From sequence record OZ035746.1: DNA of 45,119 bases, one strand, 5' to 3'. Shown one piece after another: positions 5,034-40,757 of the stretch (position 1 is its first letter; each line of letters starts with the position of its first letter). Both the position numbers and the translations under genes were made by a program. The notes under the pieces were generated by a model. It saw only the letters and a program-made list of their open reading frames with translations, did no database searches and had not been told where the DNA came from. Source of the stretch: Dhillonvirus LM40P1.

Positions 5034-5795
5034 TTAGCGCGGAATACCGCAGATTTCGTTTAGTGTCTTCACGTCAAGCGCTACTGCCGTTGACTTCTTC
5101 TCTTCCTGCGGGATGAACTGTTTCACTTCAGGCCATGCCTTAATAAGTTTGGTGTCTGTAGTGTACTTATTCAGAGTACCCATAACTGACAATTTAAACT
5201 CATCGTATTTAGCACGTAAATCGCGGCGCGCCTTGTCGTTCTTATCCAGACGTTTGCAAAATTCATGCTCTGCCGGGTAATCTGCACGACCGCGAGGCTT
5301 GTAGATCGGCACTTGCTCACCTTCCGCGTTAATTTCCACCAGCGCCGTAAGTAGCGCAGTTTCAAACCCAGGTACGATTTCGCCAATGTCCGGGGCCATC
5401 GAGTTATTGTAGCGGTCTTCCCAGTAGCCTCGGTGACAGCGGCTGCTGTAGTTATCACCGCTCAATGACAGTGTGCGGATGTTACCACCCATGTTGACTT
5501 CGAACGTTGCATCGTACACAGCACCAATGCCGTGGGGCATGTCCTTGTTATGGCTGAAGGTTGCACGGCTGGCGTACACGCTTATGCTAAACATGCCGTT
5601 ATTTGTGTCTTGATAGCTGCGCATCATTTTCTGCAACCCAACGAAGCTGGTAACACCTTTCGGCATCTGATCCAGAGTGATATCCAGCGCCAGGTCGCGC
5701 GATTCGGTCATTAACTTTTTGGCCTGCTTCGTGATTTCGTGGCCTGCCAGGATGTTAGCCAGGATTTGCTTTTTAATGTCTTTAGTCAGTCTCAT
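5034..5795 (-). CDS. hypothetical protein (antisense gene inside the head module)
   Basis: ORF 5034..5858; start placed at ATG 5795 (MRLTKDIKK) with GAGGAAA RBS because the promoter at 5826-5854 overlaps the longer ORF; no recognisable domain. Confidence 0.6.
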   Translation of the reverse strand: MRLTKDIKKQILANILAGHEITKQAKKLMTESRDLALDITLDQMPKGVTSFVGLQKMMRSYQDTNNGMFSISVYASRATFSHNKDMPHGIGAVYDATFEVNMGGNIRTLSLSGDNYSSRCHRGYWEDRYNNSMAPDIGEIVPGFETALLTALVEINAEGEQVPIYKPRGRADYPAEHEFCKRLDKNDKARRDLRAKYDEFKLSVMGTLNKYTTDTKLIKAWPEVKQFIPQEEKKSTAVALDVKTLNEICGIPR

Positions 5796-5825
5796 TGTTG
5801 TTTCCTCGTTTGTTGGTGTGCAACC

Positions 5826-5854
5826 AATATATTGCAACCAATTAGCCAATGCAA
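5826..5854 (-). promoter_or_regulatory. sigma70-like promoter TTGCAT-N17-TATATT (recurring promoter family)
   Basis: Minus-strand reading: TTGCAT (5854..5849), 17-nt spacer containing ATTGGTTGCA, TATATT (5831..5826); about 30 nt upstream of the ATG at 5795. Confidence 0.5.
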
Positions 5855-11451: not shown

Positions 11452-11771
11452 AGCGGGACAGCGGGACGTCCCGTTTTTATCCCGCTGTCCCTCCCAGCCA
11501 AAAACTGCATACCTATTCAGAAATACTGCATAAAACCAAAACGGGACAAAAACGGGACAAGCAGGACGTCCCGCCTCAAAAGTGCATATCTATGCAGTTT
11601 TCGTGCATAAAACGAACGGGACAAAAACGGGACAAATTGCAAGCGGGACAGAGCGGGACGTCCCGCCGTCCCTGCCAGAGCTGCCGCGGGTTTCAGCCGA
11701 TCGGGACAGGCGGGACAAAGCCCAGTCTTTCAGACTAGACGGGGGTCAATGGCCCCCTCCGTCTGAGACTG
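11452..11771. repeat. non-coding repeat module, copy A (about 1.5 units): CGGGACA(A) repeats, GGGACGTCCC palindromes, TGCATAAAAC boxes, long imperfect hairpin
   Basis: About 11 CGGGAC(A/G) copies, several in ACGGGACAAAAACGGGACAA doublets at 10-bp phase; GGGACGTCCCG at 11463, 11564, 11655; hairpin-forming CAGTCTTTCAGACTAGACGGGGG...GCCCCCTCCGTCTGAGACTG at 11722-11771. The 11603-11771 part is roughly 80% identical to 40066-40244. Confidence 0.7.
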
Positions 11772-21945: not shown

Positions 21946-21974
21946 AATATAGTGCAACCAATACGTGATTGCAA
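21946..21974 (-). promoter_or_regulatory. sigma70-like promoter TTGCAA-N17-TATATT (recurring family)
   Basis: Minus-strand reading: TTGCAA (21974..21969), 17-nt spacer containing ATTGGTTGCA, TATATT (21951..21946); about 30 nt upstream of the lipoprotein ATG. Confidence 0.5.
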
Positions 21975-21997
21975 CCAATTTATGAGGAGTTTTCGCT

Positions 21998-26341: not shown

Positions 26342-26370
26342 AATATAGTGCAACCAAATACGGATTGCAA
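26342..26370 (-). promoter_or_regulatory. sigma70-like promoter TTGCAA-N17-TATATT (recurring family)
   Basis: Minus-strand reading: TTGCAA (26370..26365), spacer containing TTGGTTGCA, TATATT (26347..26342); overlaps the 3' end of the upstream gene. Confidence 0.5.
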
Positions 26371-26374
26371 CCAA

Positions 26375-26596
26375 TTATTTTAATTCCTCAATCAAATTGG
26401 CACGGACAATACGGGCCGAGAAGGCATCGCACACAAGATGGCAACGCGCCGTCATGACAAGCCAGCCGGTTAGGTCACGGCCTAGCAATTGCTCCGGGCG
26501 GCTTACCCGCAATACTTTATTTCCAGGGAAAACCTGGTAACGTTTAATGATCTCATCCACGACGCGCGGACTGCGATCGACGACTAAGATATTCAT
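26375..26596 (-). CDS. hypothetical protein (73 aa)
   Basis: ATG 26596 with AAGGAGA RBS; overlaps the 3' end of the methyltransferase gene. Confidence 0.45.
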   Translation of the reverse strand: MNILVVDRSPRVVDEIIKRYQVFPGNKVLRVSRPEQLLGRDLTGWLVMTARCHLVCDAFSARIVRANLIEELK

Positions 26597-27772: not shown

Positions 27773-27803
27773 AAAAAAAAAGGGCGTTCCCTTCGGAACA
27801 CCC
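27773..27803 (-). terminator. intrinsic terminator (minus strand) between promoter and gene
   Basis: Minus-strand RNA GGGUGUUCC-GAAG-GGAACGCCC (9-bp stem including a G-U pair) followed by nine U (plus-strand A-run 27773-27781). Confidence 0.65.
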
Positions 27804-27805
27804 TC

Positions 27806-27834
27806 AATATAATGCAACCAATCTCGCAATGCAA
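27806..27834 (-). promoter_or_regulatory. sigma70-like promoter TTGCAT-N17-TATATT (recurring family)
   Basis: Minus-strand reading: TTGCAT (27834..27829), spacer containing ATTGGTTGCA, TATATT (27811..27806); predicted start falls inside the 5' arm of the terminator stem. Confidence 0.5.
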
Positions 27835-27839
27835 CCAAT

Positions 27840-30766: not shown

Positions 30767-30795
30767 ACTATAACTTTATGCGACCAATTCCGCAA
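30767..30795 (-). promoter_or_regulatory. weak promoter variant TTGCGG-N17-TATAGT with GGTTGC half-sites
   Basis: Minus-strand reading: ATTGGTTGCGGAATTGGTCGCATAAAGTTATAGT; overlaps the 3' end of the VRR-NUC gene. Confidence 0.3.
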
Positions 30796-31054
30796 CCAAT
30801 AAATCAGCGTCGTGAATGTTGTCGATTACGCGAACGTCGGCCCCGCGCTTCGCCATGCGCTCATGTTCACGTACCTGGTGCGGCTTCGGCTTACCACCGG
30901 GGCGCTTCACTTCAACGAATACGACTCTGCCGTTGATGATGATAATCAGGTCGGGAGCGCCGGTACGCCCTTCCCATGCCATTTTACGGCAGAATCCACC
31001 TGCCTCTTTTACCTCTTTCATCAGGTGACTTTGCACCTTGCCTTCAGGAGTCAT
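30776..31054 (-). CDS. VRR-NUC domain nuclease
   Basis: 92-aa ORF; PD-(D/E)xK core APDLIIIINGRVVFVEVKRPGGK; TAATG overlap with the polymerase gene. Confidence 0.65.
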   Translation of the reverse strand: MTPEGKVQSHLMKEVKEAGGFCRKMAWEGRTGAPDLIIIINGRVVFVEVKRPGGKPKPHQVREHERMAKRGADVRVIDNIHDADLLVAELVA

Positions 31055-36092: not shown

Positions 36093-36280
36093 TATTCGAC
36101 CCTCGTAAATTGAGCAATATAATAATCATGCTTAATTCCTGCTTTCGCCGCGGCGTTATTCATTGTCGCTGCCAGTTCTTTCGCTTGCATCCAGCAACAA
36201 TTCCAGTTCTGATTCATAATTATTTCCGGCTGTTCGTCGCCGGTGTTACAGCAGCGAAATAAAACAAAGAAAATACTCAT
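36092..36280 (-). CDS. small Cys-rich hypothetical protein (62 aa)
   Basis: ORF 36092..36295 (TTG); ATG 36280 in TAATG overlap with the upstream gene; CC...CC motif. Confidence 0.35.
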   Translation of the reverse strand: MSIFFVLFRCCNTGDEQPEIIMNQNWNCCWMQAKELAATMNNAAAKAGIKHDYYIAQFTRVE

Positions 36281-36531
36281 TATGGCGTCTCCCAACGGTC
36301 AATAGTTTTTGCTTCAGATCCAACTGCAAAGCGAACATATTCATGATTCGAGTCCGCCCATAAATAAAAGTCTGGATTAGCGAAGGTCGTGCGTTTAATT
36401 TGTGCCGGTGTTTCCCGCTTCTTACTAATTACGGCAACGCGCGATTGAAATGGGCCGGTGCGCTCAAATAGCCAGTAATACGGGCGCTGGTCGCGCGAGT
36501 CTACCGCTTCAATTAATGTGAATCGTGCCAT
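36280..36531 (-). CDS. hypothetical protein (83 aa)
   Basis: ATG 36531, second gene of the early minus-strand operon. Confidence 0.4.
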   Translation of the reverse strand: MARFTLIEAVDSRDQRPYYWLFERTGPFQSRVAVISKKRETPAQIKRTTFANPDFYLWADSNHEYVRFAVGSEAKTIDRWETP

Positions 36532-36545
36532 TGTCTCGTCTCTTT

Positions 36546-36572
36546 AAAAAGAGGCCCGCAGAATAGCGGGCC
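36546..36572 (-). terminator. intrinsic terminator (minus strand) after the first early gene
   Basis: GGCCCGC-UAUUCU-GCGGGCC hairpin followed by a T-rich run on the minus strand. Confidence 0.55.
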
Positions 36573-36579
36573 GGGAATA

Positions 36580-37083
36580 TTAGTCTTCCAGTTCGAAATA
36601 AGTTTCGACAATTTCTTTCAAGTCGTGGTGGAAGTCTTCCACGTCTTCGTCGTCCAGTTTAGCGACGGACTTGATTTCGTACGACTCCAGCAGGTCGTCA
36701 AATTCGTCGTTAGCATCGTCATCGTCGCCGCCTGCAATGATTGCCGCGTATTGTGCAATTTCATCGCGCATTTCTTTCAGCGGATCGGCGTCTTTCTTAG
36801 CCTTCCCTTTGCCCTTGCCTTTGGCTGGCTTTTCTTCCGGTTCGTCTTCGTCGTCGTCATCTTCTACAACTTCTTTTTTCGCCTTGCCCTTAGCCGTGGA
36901 CTTCTTAGCTGGCTTCTTATCTTCCTGCTCGTCATCTTCGTCTTTGGCTTCTTCTTTCTTAGCCTTAGACGGTTTCTTATCTTCCTGCTTACCAACGGCA
37001 GCGCCCTGGGTTTCGTAATGTTTAGCGATGGTTTCCAGTGCTACTACGCCGCGAGTAATCAGATTCAGGATTTGCTCAAACAT
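36580..37083 (-). CDS. acidic low-complexity protein (167 aa), first gene of the early minus-strand operon
   Basis: ORF 36580..37320; ATG 37083 with GGAGA RBS, about 40 nt downstream of a TTGACA-N18-TATTAT promoter; Lys-rich and Asp/Glu-rich blocks; very acidic C-terminus. Confidence 0.5.
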   Translation of the reverse strand: MFEQILNLITRGVVALETIAKHYETQGAAVGKQEDKKPSKAKKEEAKDEDDEQEDKKPAKKSTAKGKAKKEVVEDDDDEDEPEEKPAKGKGKGKAKKDADPLKEMRDEIAQYAAIIAGGDDDDANDEFDDLLESYEIKSVAKLDDEDVEDFHHDLKEIVETYFELED

Positions 37084-37130
37084 GGTGTGTCTCCGTTTAG
37101 TTAAAAGTGAATGTCGTTTCGACGAGGTGA

Positions 37131-37160
37131 ATAATAGATTGGTTGCAGGAGGGGTGTCAA
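37131..37160 (-). promoter_or_regulatory. strong sigma70-like early promoter (TTGACA-N18-TATTAT)
   Basis: Minus-strand reading: TTGACA (37160..37155), 18-nt spacer containing CTGCAACCAATC, TATTAT (37136..37131). Confidence 0.5.
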
Positions 37161-37170
37161 CAACTAATTT

Positions 37171-37204
37171 AAAAAAAAATCCCCGAAGCAAAACGCAACG
37201 GGGA
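37171..37204 (-). terminator. intrinsic terminator (minus strand) immediately upstream of the early promoter
   Basis: Minus-strand UCCCCG-UUGCGUUUUGCUU-CGGGGA hairpin followed by nine U (plus-strand A-run 37171-37179). Confidence 0.5.
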
Positions 37205-37274
37205 TAACCATAAGAGACAATGAGACTGGTTTTATTATTACACGCGCGCGCACCCGTTTCAATATACAAAACAG

Positions 37275-37303
37275 TTGACACCGGTTTGATTTGGGTGTAG
37301 TTT
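37275..37303 (+). promoter_or_regulatory. candidate sigma70 promoter TTGACA-N17-TAGTTT for the plus-strand early operon
   Basis: Consensus -35 at 37275-37280; -10-like TAGTTT at 37298-37303; about 30 nt upstream of the ATG at 37334. Confidence 0.4.
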
Positions 37304-37333
37304 CTCTGGTCATTAACCAACAGGAGACGGATT

Positions 37334-37663
37334 ATGAATATTAATGACGCAATCGAGATGTTAACTAATGCTGTGAGCGGTGAAACCAGCAGGTCCTGGG
37401 CTTACACAGATGCCGTTGGTGAGGTGCTATTTGAGATCGAACGCCTGCGCACAGTCGAGAAAGCGCTTACCGCCAAACTTGAATTGCTGAACGGTACGGC
37501 AGCGAGCAAGCTGCAAAAGCATAACGAAGAAATGGAAGAATACAAAAAGCAGGTTATCCAATTGCGCAATGAGGGTAAGTCCTGGGCAATGATTGCCGAG
37601 CTAACAGGCATTAATCAAAGCACTGTACGCTCCTGGGTACGCAATGCTAAAACCGCTAAGTAA
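37334..37663 (+). CDS. HTH DNA-binding protein (putative transcriptional regulator)
   Basis: 109-aa ORF with GGAGA RBS; C-terminal HTH-like SWAMIAELTGINQSTVRSWVRNAK. Confidence 0.45.
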   Translation: MNINDAIEMLTNAVSGETSRSWAYTDAVGEVLFEIERLRTVEKALTAKLELLNGTAASKLQKHNEEMEEYKKQVIQLRNEGKSWAMIAELTGINQSTVRSWVRNAKTAK

Positions 37664-37675
37664 GGACTTGAGACG

Positions 37676-39940
37676 ATGAGAAATATAGAATTTGCGATCA
37701 CACCTCCGGCAAAAAGGGGTGAATCAGCGGTAGCCCATAACCAATCCATGACTACCGCCGAGTTTTTCGAGTTTATGCTGGATGCGCCGGTAGTATCGTC
37801 AGTTTGCATTAACGGTACTGAAGATAAAAAAGAATATGCGCGACGTAAGCGTAAAGGCGACGGCATTGTGGCTACAACCGCCGATGGCACGCGTAAAAAG
37901 ACTGGCGTGGTTAGCCGCTCGATCCTGTTCTTCGACCTGGACCGTGCTGACAACCGCACACTTACCCGCTGCCGCAGGGCTTTCCGTAAGTCCGGCCTGG
38001 AATATGTCTACCACACCACCACCGGCGACCGCCACCCGTTGAAAGACGGCAAGCGCTGTGTGCGTTTCCTGGTGCTGACAAACAAGCCAGTTCCGGCGGA
38101 AGACTTGGGTCGCGCGCAGGCTGCACTGCTTGAGCAACTGGGTCTTACCGACGCGGGCTTTGATGACTGCTCGAAAGACACAAACCGCCTTATGTACCTG
38201 CCCCACCAGCAGGCTAAGGTCGAGTGTCATGAGGGTGAACGCGCTAACGTGCGTCGTCTGCTTCGCCTGGCTGACAAGATGGGTATTGAGCAGGAAACGT
38301 TTCGCCGTGAACTGGTGCAGGGCGACGACGAGCAGATGAACGGCATCCTCGACTGGTGTTTCCAGGCTGGTTTTGAGCCGTTACCATCCGGGCGCGGTTA
38401 TGAAGTACCGTGCCCAAACGAACATCTGCACTCTGGTGAAGGGTCTACCGCTATCATGCTTAAGGATGGCGAGATTCGTTTCAAATGTATGCACACCGGC
38501 AACGGATGCTGTTCTGAACTGAACAAACACCAACACCTGGCGCTGCGAATGATTGGTATCCCGGATATTTATAACGTGGAACCTCACAACATGTCGCGCA
38601 AACAGATCTCGGCAATCCTGCCCGGACTGGACGATGAAGAAGTGGACGCGCAGTATGAGCACATGGTCGATCTGGTTGGCGAAGGGGAGGATTATGCGTC
38701 CTGTACTGACGCAGACCTGGAAGACGAACCAACGGCACTGTTCTCTAAACACGACCCGATCATCGAAGGTCTGATTAACTTTAAATCGACCTGGTACGCA
38801 GCGGGTGAGTCGAACATTGGTAAGTCCTTCTTCGTCCTGGGTCAGATGGCTGCCGTTGCCGCTGGCATCCCGTTCGGCGGCGCGAAGGTCGTCCAGTCCC
38901 ATTGCTTCTACTTCGATGCGGAAGGTGGCGAGGCGTCCCACCAGCGTAAAGAAGCGTTGCAGATTAAATATGAGCACGACCTGGACAAGCTGCACATTAT
39001 CGACCTTCAGGCACGCGGCTGGGATATTACGAGCAAGTCCGGCCTGCGTGAAGTCATCAGCTTTATCAACCGCACCGCGGATGGGGAACCGGTCGGCCTG
39101 GTGGCGTTCGACTCCCTTAACCAGACCGTGGCCCTGCGCTCGGCAGATGCCAAACCGTTCGACGAGAACAACGCAAGCGATATGGGTGAGATTGTCAAAG
39201 CGCTGAAGTCCATTGCGGAAAACACAGGAGGCAGTGCGGGCGTCATTCACCACCCGGCGAAGGGTGCAAACGGCAGCCGATCCCCGCGTGGATCCGGTGC
39301 GCTACATGGCGCGGTGGATTCTGCATTCTTCCTGGAACAGCCAGACGAGAATCAGCCAGGCCAGCTTAACCTCTATCATGAGAAAGCCCGTAACGGCGTG
39401 AAACAGGGTCCGCGCGGCTTCGTGCTACTGAAGTGCAAAGTGTCCATTAACGAGCGCAAGTCCGACTCGTTCGAAGCACACCAGTCTACCAATCCGGGGC
39501 CAGACTTCGGCGATGTGGTTGCCGGTTGGGACGTAAAACCGATCCAGGCCACACCGCGCGACGAGACTCTGTACCTTGTTCCGGTAGCTCTGGCCCCGTT
39601 TGCTATCGAACAGGCTAAGGCGGCAGGCAAGCAGGCTGTTAAGGAAGAAAACCCCGCCGGTCCGCGCAATGAAAAAGAGAAAGTGCTTTACGCAGCGCTC
39701 GAAGCGTTGATGGAAGAGAATCCGGGACACCATGGCTTCAGCAAATCGGCAATCGTCCGCAAAGCCGGACTGGCGAAAGGTGGCACATCGACGAAGCCAA
39801 TAGACGATATGCGTGAGCGCGGAATCATCGGCTTTTACAAAGACCCTGACACCGGGGCCATTTACGGGTCGTCGAATCTGGTTATCAATTCACAAATACC
39901 TATGCAATTGACGGCGACGGATGATGATTTGAAAGATTAA
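37676..39940 (+). CDS. DNA primase-helicase (AEP-type primase-like N-terminus plus RecA/DnaB-like ATPase)
   Basis: 754-aa ORF; N-terminal FFDLDRAD motif; ATPase Walker A GESNIGKS and Walker B-like VAFDSL. Confidence 0.65.
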   Translation: MRNIEFAITPPAKRGESAVAHNQSMTTAEFFEFMLDAPVVSSVCINGTEDKKEYARRKRKGDGIVATTADGTRKKTGVVSRSILFFDLDRADNRTLTRCRRAFRKSGLEYVYHTTTGDRHPLKDGKRCVRFLVLTNKPVPAEDLGRAQAALLEQLGLTDAGFDDCSKDTNRLMYLPHQQAKVECHEGERANVRRLLRLADKMGIEQETFRRELVQGDDEQMNGILDWCFQAGFEPLPSGRGYEVPCPNEHLHSGEGSTAIMLKDGEIRFKCMHTGNGCCSELNKHQHLALRMIGIPDIYNVEPHNMSRKQISAILPGLDDEEVDAQYEHMVDLVGEGEDYASCTDADLEDEPTALFSKHDPIIEGLINFKSTWYAAGESNIGKSFFVLGQMAAVAAGIPFGGAKVVQSHCFYFDAEGGEASHQRKEALQIKYEHDLDKLHIIDLQARGWDITSKSGLREVISFINRTADGEPVGLVAFDSLNQTVALRSADAKPFDENNASDMGEIVKALKSIAENTGGSAGVIHHPAKGANGSRSPRGSGALHGAVDSAFFLEQPDENQPGQLNLYHEKARNGVKQGPRGFVLLKCKVSINERKSDSFEAHQSTNPGPDFGDVVAGWDVKPIQATPRDETLYLVPVALAPFAIEQAKAAGKQAVKEENPAGPRNEKEKVLYAALEALMEENPGHHGFSKSAIVRKAGLAKGGTSTKPIDDMRERGIIGFYKDPDTGAIYGSSNLVINSQIPMQLTATDDDLKD

Positions 39941-39945
39941 TTTTT

Positions 39946-40028
39946 GCGCGCATTGGTTGCCAATATGGTTAATTTGTGCGCGCATTGGTTGCCAGATTGG
40001 GCATTAAATCTATATCGCATTGGTTGCC
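39946..40028 (+). repeat. three direct iterons GCGCGCATTGGTTGCC(A)
   Basis: 39946-39962 and 39978-39994 are identical 17-mers; a shorter third copy TCGCATTGGTTGCC lies at 40015-40028; spacing about 32 and 35 bp. Confidence 0.65.
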
Positions 40029-40065
40029 GTGTAGTGCTAAATAAGTGAATAGTTATGCAAAATAA

Positions 40066-40244
40066 GTGCATAAAACAAACGGGACAAAAACGGGACAAAC
40101 GACAAACGGGACAAAACGGGACGTCCCGCCGTCCCCCTCAGGAGTGGCGCGGGTTTGAGGCAAACGGGACAAGCGGGACAGACCACAGTCTTTCAGACTA
40201 GACGGGGGGTATTGTCCCCCCTCCGTCTGAGACTGCATAAAATC
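40066..40244. repeat. non-coding repeat module, copy B
   Basis: GTGCATAAAACAAACGGGACAAAAACGGGACAA..., GGGACGTCCCGCC at 40119-40131, hairpin CAGTCTTTCAGACTAGACGGGGGG...CCCCCCTCCGTCTGAGACTG; same order and orientation as 11603-11771. Confidence 0.7.
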
Positions 40245-40394
40245 TCTGGTTGCATAATCAACGGCAGCATAGTGAAAAATGCGGCGGGGGTAGATCTCGG
40301 CAACCAATGCGAGTTGAAGAGTGGAGAGTGAAAAATGCAGTTTGCAATTGCAACTCATAGCGATCAGCATTTTCATGCGCGTGATTAATATTGG

Positions 40395-40423
40395 TTGCAT
40401 TCGTCCTGCCAGGGTGTTAGATT
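40395..40423 (+). promoter_or_regulatory. promoter of the recurring family, plus orientation (TTGCAT-N17-TAGATT)
   Basis: ATTGGTTGCAT at 40390-40400 and TAGATTGGTTGCA at 40418-40430; about 30 nt upstream of the ATG at 40452. Confidence 0.4.
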
Positions 40424-40451
40424 GGTTGCACACCAACATGAGGACTGAACG

Positions 40452-40757
40452 ATGAGAGCATTAATCTGGAATTACACAATGGCTGTGGCGAAGCTGTACG
40501 AAGCGAAGCACACAAACGGCAACGCAGACGACGCGCGCCAGGCTGTCATCCTGGCCCAGCAGGGAATCATGAACGCGTTCGACGATATGTTTGCCAGCCT
40601 GGACGAACTGGAACCGCTGCGCGTGGCAATCTGCGAATATGCGATGGCATTTGCCCGTGAACGCCTGGCATACCGGTTTGGTATCGGGGAAACGGCAGTG
40701 GCTAACATCGCCCGCATTCAGGCCCAGCGTGAGCTGCACGCCATACTCGCGAAATAA
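40452..40757 (+). CDS. hypothetical protein (101 aa)
   Basis: GAGGA RBS; first gene after the repeat region. Confidence 0.45.
   Translation: MRALIWNYTMAVAKLYEAKHTNGNADDARQAVILAQQGIMNAFDDMFASLDELEPLRVAICEYAMAFARERLAYRFGIGETAVANIARIQAQRELHAILAK

Follow-up and report, generated by a model that had tools for sequence, protein, structure and literature searches.

A putative small-RNA unit in the divergent early control region of Dhillonvirus LM40P1 and the match of its 5' block to flanking translation-initiation regions

Sar of phage P22 (68/69 nt) and OOP of lambda (77 nt) are short phage RNAs, each running from its own promoter to a terminator and each repressing a phage regulator (PMC12197685). 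A unit of comparable build lies on the minus strand at 37171..37262 of the 45,119-nt stretch of Dhillonvirus LM40P1 DNA analysed here (record OZ035746.1; the whole stretch is called the window), where an orphan promoter (P_sRNA) and an intrinsic terminator enclose a 5' block that is complementary to the initiation regions of flanking early genes. These elements exist, are conserved and are non-coding, and the complementarity is specific. Both Sar and OOP are transcribed from a constitutive sigma-70 promoter within an early regulatory region and pair with a regulator mRNA, Sar covering the ant ribosome-binding site. As a predicted short RNA with its own promoter and intrinsic terminator in an early region, the LM40P1 unit has its nearest functional analogues in these two. 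They differ in being cis-antisense RNAs encoded opposite their target, whereas here no predicted opposite-strand mRNA overlaps the unit; the complementarity is partial (9-15 bp) and involves five genes in two divergent operons, and the phage is virulent rather than temperate.

Other known systems share single aspects of the unit. DicF of the Qin prophage (53 nt) arises by processing of a longer transcript and acts on host genes. With DicF and other Hfq-dependent trans small RNAs, the predicted LM40P1 product has in common a length of ~50-60 nt, a single-stranded seed, a terminator hairpin, a U-tail and imperfect pairing with several translation-initiation regions (TIRs); DicF differs in its processing and host targets, the unit has no sequence or Rfam relationship to it, and any Hfq dependence of the unit is putative. 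In T4, RegA is a single phage product that recognises many early initiation regions and lowers their translation, but RegA is a protein, while the effector proposed here is a base-pairing RNA. In lambda, the PR'-6S RNA-tR' unit provides the loading site of the Q antiterminator ahead of the late genes, and StxS in Stx phages is regulatory. Both resemble the predicted LM40P1 unit in having a constitutive promoter, a close intrinsic terminator and a short, abundant RNA. A Q-type late-promoter unit was rejected for LM40P1: the genes downstream are early/replication genes behind a strong promoter of their own, no Q-like protein was found, and the neighbouring proteins carry no antiterminator domain.

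The predicted unit and its conservation

BLAST of the control region assigns the window to the genus Dhillonvirus, HK578-like E. coli siphophages, with Ioannina as the nearest relative (~93% identity). The unit sits in the genome's single divergent control region, between the first leftward gene (ATG 37083..37081) and the rightward gene (ATG 37334) of a small helix-turn-helix (HTH) protein. Its elements are as follows.

37257..37262, minus strand: -35 hexamer TTGAAA of the orphan promoter P_sRNA, TTGAAA in 34/36 distinct relatives
37234..37242, minus strand: extended -10 (TG 37242-37241, T, AATAAT 37239-37234), with TG plus TAATAAT invariant in 36/36
37227..37233, minus strand: discriminator between the -10 and the start site, AAAACCA in the window
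37205..37226, minus strand: conserved 5' block (proposed seed), GUCUCAUUGUCUCUUAUGGUUA, beginning at the predicted start site
37179..37205, minus strand: intrinsic terminator hairpin (GC-rich stem of 7 bp, 2x2 internal loop, two inner pairs, loop of 5 nt)
37171..37179, minus strand: T9 run, encoding the terminator's U-tail and located at roughly -47 to -55 relative to the main early promoter

Relatives were collected in three ways, through the HTH protein (14 IMG/VR contigs), through BLAST of phage records and through an exact 17-mer; the metagenome scan with the 17-mer returned mostly chance matches and one adapter chimera (L103), and contigs were kept only with a full cassette. The resulting set holds 37 distinct cassettes from 59 loci, and 36 of the 37 cassettes were parsed for the element counts. 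The control region has matches in 154 phage records, practically all Dhillonvirus-like, and in 150 records the match covers at least 80% of it; mean column identity among relatives is 89%.

The promoter-like element of the preliminary description, TTGAAA at 37262..37257 followed by TAATAAT at 37240..37234, is present, with a spacer of 16 nt to TAATAAT or 17 nt to AATAAT. Read as TTGAAA (5/6), 17 nt and AATAAT (5/6) with TG, it scores 10/12 against the consensus in our scan and is consistent with an extended -10 sigma-70 promoter. Exceptions among the 36 cassettes are few: the -35 is once TTGAAT and once TTGAAC, and the spacer measures 17 nt in 35. The HK578 GenBank record carries three annotated promoters in the control region, one of which is this element. 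Promoter-like hexamers occur in the region at chance level (6 found vs 6.6 expected), so that the case for a unit rests on the rarity of its T-run and on conservation of the unit as a whole, which extends to every Dhillonvirus relative examined. No ATTGGTTGC box was seen in the orphan promoter, unlike the neighbouring early promoter.

The pattern of variation changes abruptly along the unit. The discriminator, with 11 versions of 6-7 nt (once 10) among the 36 relatives, varies more than any other stretch of the region, a sign that it is either not transcribed or not constrained. Free variation gives way to near-invariance exactly at the predicted start, 7 nt past the -10, at the G of GUCUC or one base earlier. 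Across relatives the block that begins here has 22-23 nt, GUCUCAUUGUCUCUUAU(U)GGUUA as RNA and GTCTCATTGTCTCTTAT(T)GGTTA as DNA, and it is identical in 30/36; the window clade is without one U, Bas84 has U14C, Bas14 has U15C and Opt212 has a 5-nt duplication. The block is single-copy in the window, and neither a further copy nor an operator-like copy was found elsewhere in the genome within 3 mismatches.

From promoter geometry, the RNA would run from about G37226 (+/-1) to about 37172, that is ~55 nt (54-60 nt across variants), in line with the 55-60-nt transcript, ending before the main early promoter, that the preliminary description had predicted. The 56-nt transcript folds at -16.0 kcal/mol (z = -5.2 vs 200 shuffles), and in 3/4 folded variants the first 22-23 nt are predicted to be unpaired, followed by the terminator hairpin and a long U-tail. 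Rfam 15 gave no match at gathering thresholds for the unit in the window and four relatives, and a permissive Rfam search returned terminator-like matches only (12-19 bits vs thresholds of 39-81). As a stand-alone non-coding unit with a conserved, predicted single-stranded seed, it would fall among the trans small RNAs of the Hfq class, and the ~55-nt RNA is probably made.

The strong intrinsic terminator, earlier described as a hairpin at 37204..37180 with nine T, is there and has a further closing pair, A37205-U37179. TCCCCG (37204..37199) pairs with CGGGGA (37185..37180) around a 2x2 pyrimidine internal loop and inner GC/GC pairs; the hairpin is worth -15.3 kcal/mol (RNAfold), 5 of its 7 stem pairs are G-C, and U9 follows. 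No T-run follows the hairpin on the plus strand, and the features of an intrinsic terminator are complete on the minus strand. A simple terminator scan missed it because its loop limit was 8 nt and the 2x2 internal loop lengthens the apparent loop. The 45-kb window has only two runs of at least eight T, each behind a strong minus-strand hairpin, and in relatives the run of the unit measures 8-14 and never fewer than 8. The WF5505 record annotates the hairpin as a terminator.

The stem exists in two versions, TCCCCG/CGGGGA in the window clade and GCGCCG/CGGCGC elsewhere, which differ by two double compensatory changes (U-A to G-C, C-G to G-C) with 184/184 cells paired in 23 sequences. Because these changes probably represent one evolutionary event, their support for the hairpin is modest but clean. 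The hairpin loop has 5 versions among the 36 cassettes, and a hairpin variant in 4/36 gains a G.U pair possible only in minus-strand RNA. Promoter and hairpin thus came through the conservation check on which the earlier prediction could have foundered, the hexamers being conserved in the 36 cassettes and the hairpin kept by compensatory changes.

Coding readings were rejected in turn. A 49-aa minus-strand open reading frame (ORF; 37164..37313), annotated as a CDS in Bas84, Bas14, Bas17 and other relatives, does not stay open, as three 1-nt indels, the T-run of varying length and the Opt212 5-nt duplication disrupt its frame. A 15-aa peptide from an AUG in the window RNA has AUU at that place in the majority of relatives. 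In a plus-strand 26-aa ORF from ATG 37220, two 1-nt indels are found in each of the four possible combinations, and the resulting peptides of 19-26 aa are unrelated. As reading frames are not kept among relatives, the unit is non-coding. Several records appear to contain annotation errors here, with hypothetical proteins called across the non-coding control region (Ioannina WFD55466.1, Bas84_0051, bas14_0049, bas17_0050, P9611_gp49, P9651_gp49, CHD5UKE2_040 and 101114BS4_063); in the Ioannina record, the first leftward gene is stretched upstream through both promoters, to 245 aa vs 167 aa expected.

Complementarity to the flanking initiation regions

What is new is the specific match of the block to the TIRs of the flanking early genes. 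Five candidate targets were considered, named below with their Shine-Dalgarno (SD) sequences where these are involved.

37314..37328, plus strand: candidate target 1, 5' leader and SD of the HTH gene (ATG 37334), UAACCAACAGGAGAC, in a duplex with block nt 9-22
37670..37681, plus strand: candidate target 2, SD and start codon of the primase-helicase gene, GAGACGAUGAGA, p=0.002
36278..36305, minus strand: candidate target 3, TIR of the third leftward gene (62 aa, ATG 36280), p=0.001
36529..36542, minus strand: candidate target 4, TIR of the second leftward gene, GAGACGAGACAAUG, complementary to the block
37081..37103, minus strand: candidate target 5, TIR of the first leftward gene (ATG 37083..37081), weaker in the window clade

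The block can be divided into two overlapping modules, nt 1-13 and nt 9-22. Module 1, GUCUCAUUGUCUC, is the complement of GAGAC-AAUG-AGAC, i.e. of an SD plus start codon, and module 2, GUCUCUUAU(U)GGUUA, is the complement of UAACCAAUAAGAGAC, i.e. of a leader plus SD. The modules share out the targets, module 1 matching gene 2 and the helicase gene, and module 2 matching gene 3, the HTH gene and gene 1.

The primase-helicase TIR pairs over its SD and AUG with block nt 2-13, 12 pairs without interruption, and ranks first among the 58 TIRs of the window, ahead of gene 3 (rank 2), the HTH gene (3) and gene 2 (5). The HTH leader duplex reaches -17.0 kcal/mol (p=0.023 in the window; p=0.000-0.013 in other clades), and the WF5505 HTH leader has a run of 18 Watson-Crick and G.U pairs with the block, about 15 of which were read by eye. 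In the gene 2 TIR, GAGACAAUG is a 9-nt Watson-Crick complement of block nt 5-13 (read by eye). Taken with the whole block, genes 1, 2, 3, HTH and helicase rank 15, 5, 1, 4 and 2 of 59 in Ioannina, which belongs to the window clade, and 3, 10, 1, 2 and 17 of 67 in Bas84, which represents the other main clade; gene 3 is thus first in both, and gene 2 rises to ranks 2 and 1, respectively, with module 1 alone.

Summed over the five flanking genes, the ranks come to 27 in Ioannina (59 genes) and 33 in Bas84 (67 genes), compared with 145+/-39 and 169+/-38 for shuffled seeds, of which 0/400 did as well in either genome. As control probes, the 16S anti-SD tail gave rank sums of 134 and 184 and the reversed block 99 and 205. 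The absence of a bias with the 16S anti-SD probe indicates that the complementarity is not due to stronger SDs of the flanking genes. Per-target p-values across the candidates range from 0.001 to 0.09, a seed complementarity that is computationally beyond chance. In the HK578-type clade the first rightward gene encodes a different protein, yet its TIR has a perfect 10-nt complement, AGACAAUGAG, to block nt 3-12 (p<=0.002). The only point substitutions in the block, U14C in Bas84 and U15C in Bas14, each replace a G.U with a G-C pair to the HTH leader of the same phage. Scored against all 72 single substitutions that are possible, they fall within the top 2.8% and 4.2%, and each block pairs best with its own leader type.

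All five flanking genes have a GAGAC-type SD, at 37089-37093(-), 36529-36542(-), 36287-36291(-), 37324-37328(+) and 37670-37674(+). GAGAC occurs 26 times in the whole window on both strands, and in Bas84 three of the five flanking genes keep it.

Several points weigh against taking these matches as RNA pairing. The gene 1 TIR forms a weak duplex in the window clade (-14.0 kcal/mol, p=0.040), although in the majority clade it reads UUAACCAAUCGGAGAU and reaches -18.7 kcal/mol (p=0.003; rank 3/67 in Bas84). Since the block directly repeats the antisense of the HTH leader, RNA pairing and a repeated DNA or TIR motif are inseparable by statistics alone; complementarity between RNAs is here equivalent to a direct DNA repeat, and the statistics therefore speak for a real sequence relationship rather than for pairing in vivo. 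Relatives share ancestry, and p-values taken clade by clade are thus not independent; the RNAduplex scores disregard target accessibility. Conservation is high throughout the control region, and operators or other constraints at the DNA level could add to the invariance of the block. A literature search found no account of Dhillonvirus transcription or of a small RNA. Finally, the block read on the plus strand resembles one more, sixth early TIR, AAGAGACAAUGAGAC, and the Bas84 and Bas14 changes are A-to-G changes in its SD-like string, as a plus-strand TIR would favour.

This last point leads to an alternative in which the block is the plus-strand TIR (SD AAGAGA, ATG 37220) of a small upstream ORF, with the hairpin as a 5' stabiliser of a rightward transcript that would start from a ATTGGTTGC box (37138), a -35-like TTGCAG and a -10-like TAATTT. 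Such a TIR would share the GAGAC-N-AUG-AGA pattern of other early TIRs, and the geometry from box to TAATTT, with a 17-nt spacer, is like that of the genome's double-box promoters. The promoter is weak (7/12) and has no second box, the ORF is not conserved and would encode the unrelated 19-26-aa peptides, and the invariant minus-strand promoter and the U8-14 run are left unexplained, for which reasons we rate this reading as very improbable; the hairpin variant whose added G.U pair can form only in minus-strand RNA (4/36) also speaks against it.

The RNA could also be regulatory towards host mRNAs or host small RNAs, in a host takeover or as a sponge. Its shape and conservation fit this equally, and there are known precedents, for example DicF, AgvB and AsxR, phage-derived small RNAs that target host RNAs (PMC12197685). 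The search of 5,426 E. coli genomes found no extended match, and neither similar nor complementary stretches were found there or in 185,579 GTDB species genomes, although BLAST is blind to seeds of 8-12 nt. The bias towards the phage's own flanking TIRs would be left unexplained, and we consider host targets improbable.

A trans-acting anti-ribosome-binding-site small RNA for the early genes is the reading we prefer, tentatively, and at slightly less than an even chance. Of the two options in the preliminary description, a small regulatory RNA has thus gained ground, with a sharp conservation boundary at its start, a predicted single-stranded 5' region and complementarity to the flanking ribosome-binding regions, all of which are consistent with it. 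The other option, that the terminator insulates the early promoter, is probably also true, alongside a small RNA. The label 'leader', also used there, is least apt, as the unit is set apart from the first gene by a strong terminator and by another strong promoter.

Flanking promoters, terminators and repeats

With the Ioannina annotation as a guide, the gene map of the window has structural genes running rightward from 0 to 25 kb, replication/early genes running leftward from about 37.1 to 25 kb and, rightward from 37.3 kb, the small HTH protein, the primase-helicase, small genes and lysis genes. The HTH protein (37334-37663) has a C-terminal sigma-70-region-4-like HTH. No plus-strand gene or good plus-strand promoter covers the unit, and two promoters flank it.

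37131..37160, minus strand: main leftward early promoter (TTGACA 37160..37155, 18 nt, TATTAT 37136..37131), 11/12 consensus, the best promoter match of the region and conserved
37275..37303, plus strand: probable rightward HTH-gene promoter (TTGACA 37275-37280, 17 nt, TAGTTT 37298-37303), read by eye

An exact ATTGGTTGC box (37138-37146, plus strand) lies inside the spacer of the main early promoter. The HTH promoter falls under the -10 threshold of the scan, and the equivalent site is annotated as a promoter in the HK578 record; it stands back-to-back with the orphan promoter, their -35 hexamers separated by 12-13 bp. A cis-antisense RNA of the OOP, Sar or c4 type was rejected on this geometry, the HTH start near 37309 being ~80 nt outside the unit (37172-37226).

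The close packing of these promoters raises the alternative of an architectural element, in which polymerase bound at the orphan promoter, back-to-back with the HTH promoter, acts through competition or supercoiling coupling, the short RNA is a by-product without function, the terminator prevents occlusion of the early promoter and the T-tract serves as the UP element of that promoter. The short distance between the divergent -35 hexamers fits this. So does the spacer of the orphan promoter (37241-37256, minus strand), CGGGTGCGCGCGCGTG, whose 13-nt alternating purine-pyrimidine tract is nearly invariant in relatives; it is unusually conserved for a spacer, may be a supercoiling-sensitive or protein-binding site, and hints at a DNA-level constraint. 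Coupling of terminators to promoters is reported to be widespread in bacteria in a preprint (bioRxiv 10.64898/2026.08.19.745784).

Relative to the main early promoter, T9 spans roughly -55 to -47 and AAA spans -46 to -44, where contact with the polymerase alpha subunit would be made. The UP-element consensus of Estrem et al. is reportedly AAAWWTWTTTTnnAAAA, an A/T-rich tract at about -40 to -60; the distal half of the LM40P1 tract fits it and the proximal half partly does. Judged from position and composition, the T-tract with AAA may act as an UP element for the main early promoter, a putative role that differs from described UP elements in being secondary only, with a T-run that varies from 8 to 14 in relatives. 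The architectural reading accounts neither for the near-invariance of +1 to +23 beside a discriminator and a hairpin loop that vary freely, nor for the specific match of the block to five flanking TIRs (0/400 shuffles in two clades, with a negative 16S control). We regard it as unlikely, if still the rival to be taken most seriously.

A further strong intrinsic terminator, GGCCCGC...GCGGGCC with a T-run (36553-36572, minus strand), stands directly behind the first leftward gene and is annotated in the WF5505 record as well. The gene 2 TIR comes next and leaves no room for a promoter, so genes 2 onward depend on read-through or antitermination. This bears on the possibility that the terminator of the unit is itself regulated, as a promoter-proximal attenuator at which a phage antiterminator would turn on read-through into the leftward operon and add termination-resistant transcription able to pass the terminator right after gene 1 (36572..36553). 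A boxA-like UCUCUUA in the block and a -10-like CAUUGU in the initial transcribed region, both seen by eye, would suit such a system, although the boxA likeness is only 6/8 and there is no boxB. No antiterminator was identified, the flanking proteins having HTH, AAA_25 or no domains; the hairpin with its perfect U8-14 tail looks like a plain terminator and not like a boxB or put element; and the consensus promoter immediately downstream makes a read-through promoter redundant. A regulated terminator is accordingly quite improbable as an account of the unit.

A replication origin or primer RNA at the unit was also rejected, as no iterons lie within 36900-37700 and iteron-like repeats are found at 39950-40170 instead; a DnaA-box-like TTATCCCCG was dismissed, being seen in the window clade only. 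In Bas84 (L016 3857-4052), HK578, SO-1, SSL-2009a and most relatives, an extra leader of ~130-190 nt separates the main early promoter from the MFEQ... gene; it is absent from the window/Ioannina clade, is annotated as a protein N-terminal extension in Bas84, shows no significant structure (z=0.35) and no Rfam match, and is irrelevant to the unit.

Elsewhere in the window, the 9-mer ATTGGTTGC has 17 exact copies vs ~0.3 expected, and 25 copies with at most one mismatch vs 13.3+/-4.0 expected (0/100 shuffles). The box sites are listed here in order of position.

5820-5842(-), 21954-21979(-), 26350-26375(-), 27814-27839(-), 30780-30800(-) and 37138-37146(+): ATTGGTTGC box sites
39952/39984/40019(+), 40300-40308(-), 40390/40421(+), 40955(-) and 43594(-): ATTGGTTGC box sites, continued

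Most copies form pairs on one strand, spaced 12-17 bp and placed immediately in front of genes as ATTGGTTGCA-N7-8-ATTGGTTGCAC-TATATT: the first box contributes a -35-like TTGCAA, and a -10-like TATATT adjoins the second. One copy is inverted, that between the -35 and -10 of the main early promoter. Ioannina has 17 copies and Bas84 has 16, at syntenic positions. The box has the appearance of a phage-specific promoter or operator element, with the sigma-region-4-like HTH protein (37334-37663) as an obvious candidate to bind it. At 27773-27839 (minus strand), a second promoter-then-terminator arrangement consists of a double-box promoter (TATATT), a hairpin GAGGGTGTTCCGAAGGGAACGCCCT with T9 and the SD of the next gene; the predicted start lies inside the 5' arm of the stem, so this terminator would stop upstream transcripts and not those of its own promoter.

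Right after the primase-helicase stop codon, 39950-40175 (plus strand) holds three direct GCGCATTGGTTGCC and four ACGGGACA repeats, and 11541-11634 (plus strand) has four more ACGGGACA, for a total of 8 vs 1.5 expected (0/100 shuffles); the ACGGGACA repeats are present in Ioannina and nearly absent from Bas84. The cluster near 40 kb could represent a replication origin or an iteron region. The palindrome TTGGT-N5-ACCAA occurs at 5813-5827, 37306-37320 and 40422-40436 (plus strand), each time in the leader just upstream of the SD of a gene (starts 5795-, 37334+ and 40452+), and could be an operator or a leader hairpin; its 3 copies vs 1.3 expected are not significant alone. AUGAGA was read by eye in the start region of three genes, at 5795, at 40452 and, for the helicase, at 37676.

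A possible brake on early translation

Under the preferred small-RNA reading, host sigma-70 polymerase would fire the strong orphan promoter constitutively from the moment of DNA entry, starting at about G37226, and the efficient intrinsic terminator would release a ~55-nt RNA just ahead of the main early promoter. The product would have a 22-23-nt single-stranded 5' region, the terminator hairpin and a U8-14 tail, probably the shape of an Hfq-binding trans small RNA. As it accumulates, it would pair with the initiation regions of the immediate-early mRNAs from both neighbouring promoters, namely those of the sigma-region-4-like HTH protein and the primase-helicase on the right and of genes 1-3 on the left, and would limit or shut off their translation as an RNA counterpart of early translational repression. 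Promoter, terminator and complementarity together suggest that the RNA is produced, pairs with the five targets and represses them. The terminator would have a further role, as it probably insulates the early promoter by keeping polymerases from the orphan promoter out of it, and its T-tract with AAA, at about -44 to -55, would occupy the UP-element position of that promoter.

In its strongest form, the proposal is that one ~55-nt RNA serves as a master translational brake on the whole immediate-early set of a virulent siphophage through a bipartite 5' end directed against initiation regions. This form is doubtful, but if true it would be an RNA equivalent of the early shut-off of the T4 RegA type and might also control the replication initiator in a copy-number-like manner. 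Separate predictions of promoter and terminator already exist, in the HK578 and WF5505 records, and no record or paper was found that joins them as a small-RNA gene; from its sequence, the unit would be an uncharacterised phage-encoded base-pairing small RNA, new to that class.

Dhillonviruses are common and easily handled coliphages that include Bas14, Bas17 and Bas84 of the BASEL collection and the SECphi phages of defence-system work, and the literature searched contained nothing on their gene-expression programme. Several GenBank records carry apparently spurious proteins across the unit. As a compact natural packing of promoter, small RNA, terminator and promoter, the unit may interest phage engineers, and even if the RNA were functionless, the region would still be a clean example of a terminator insulating, and probably feeding, a strong promoter. 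If the small-RNA reading is true, the unit would represent one of the few regulatory RNAs known in a strictly virulent coliphage, with a concrete target set.

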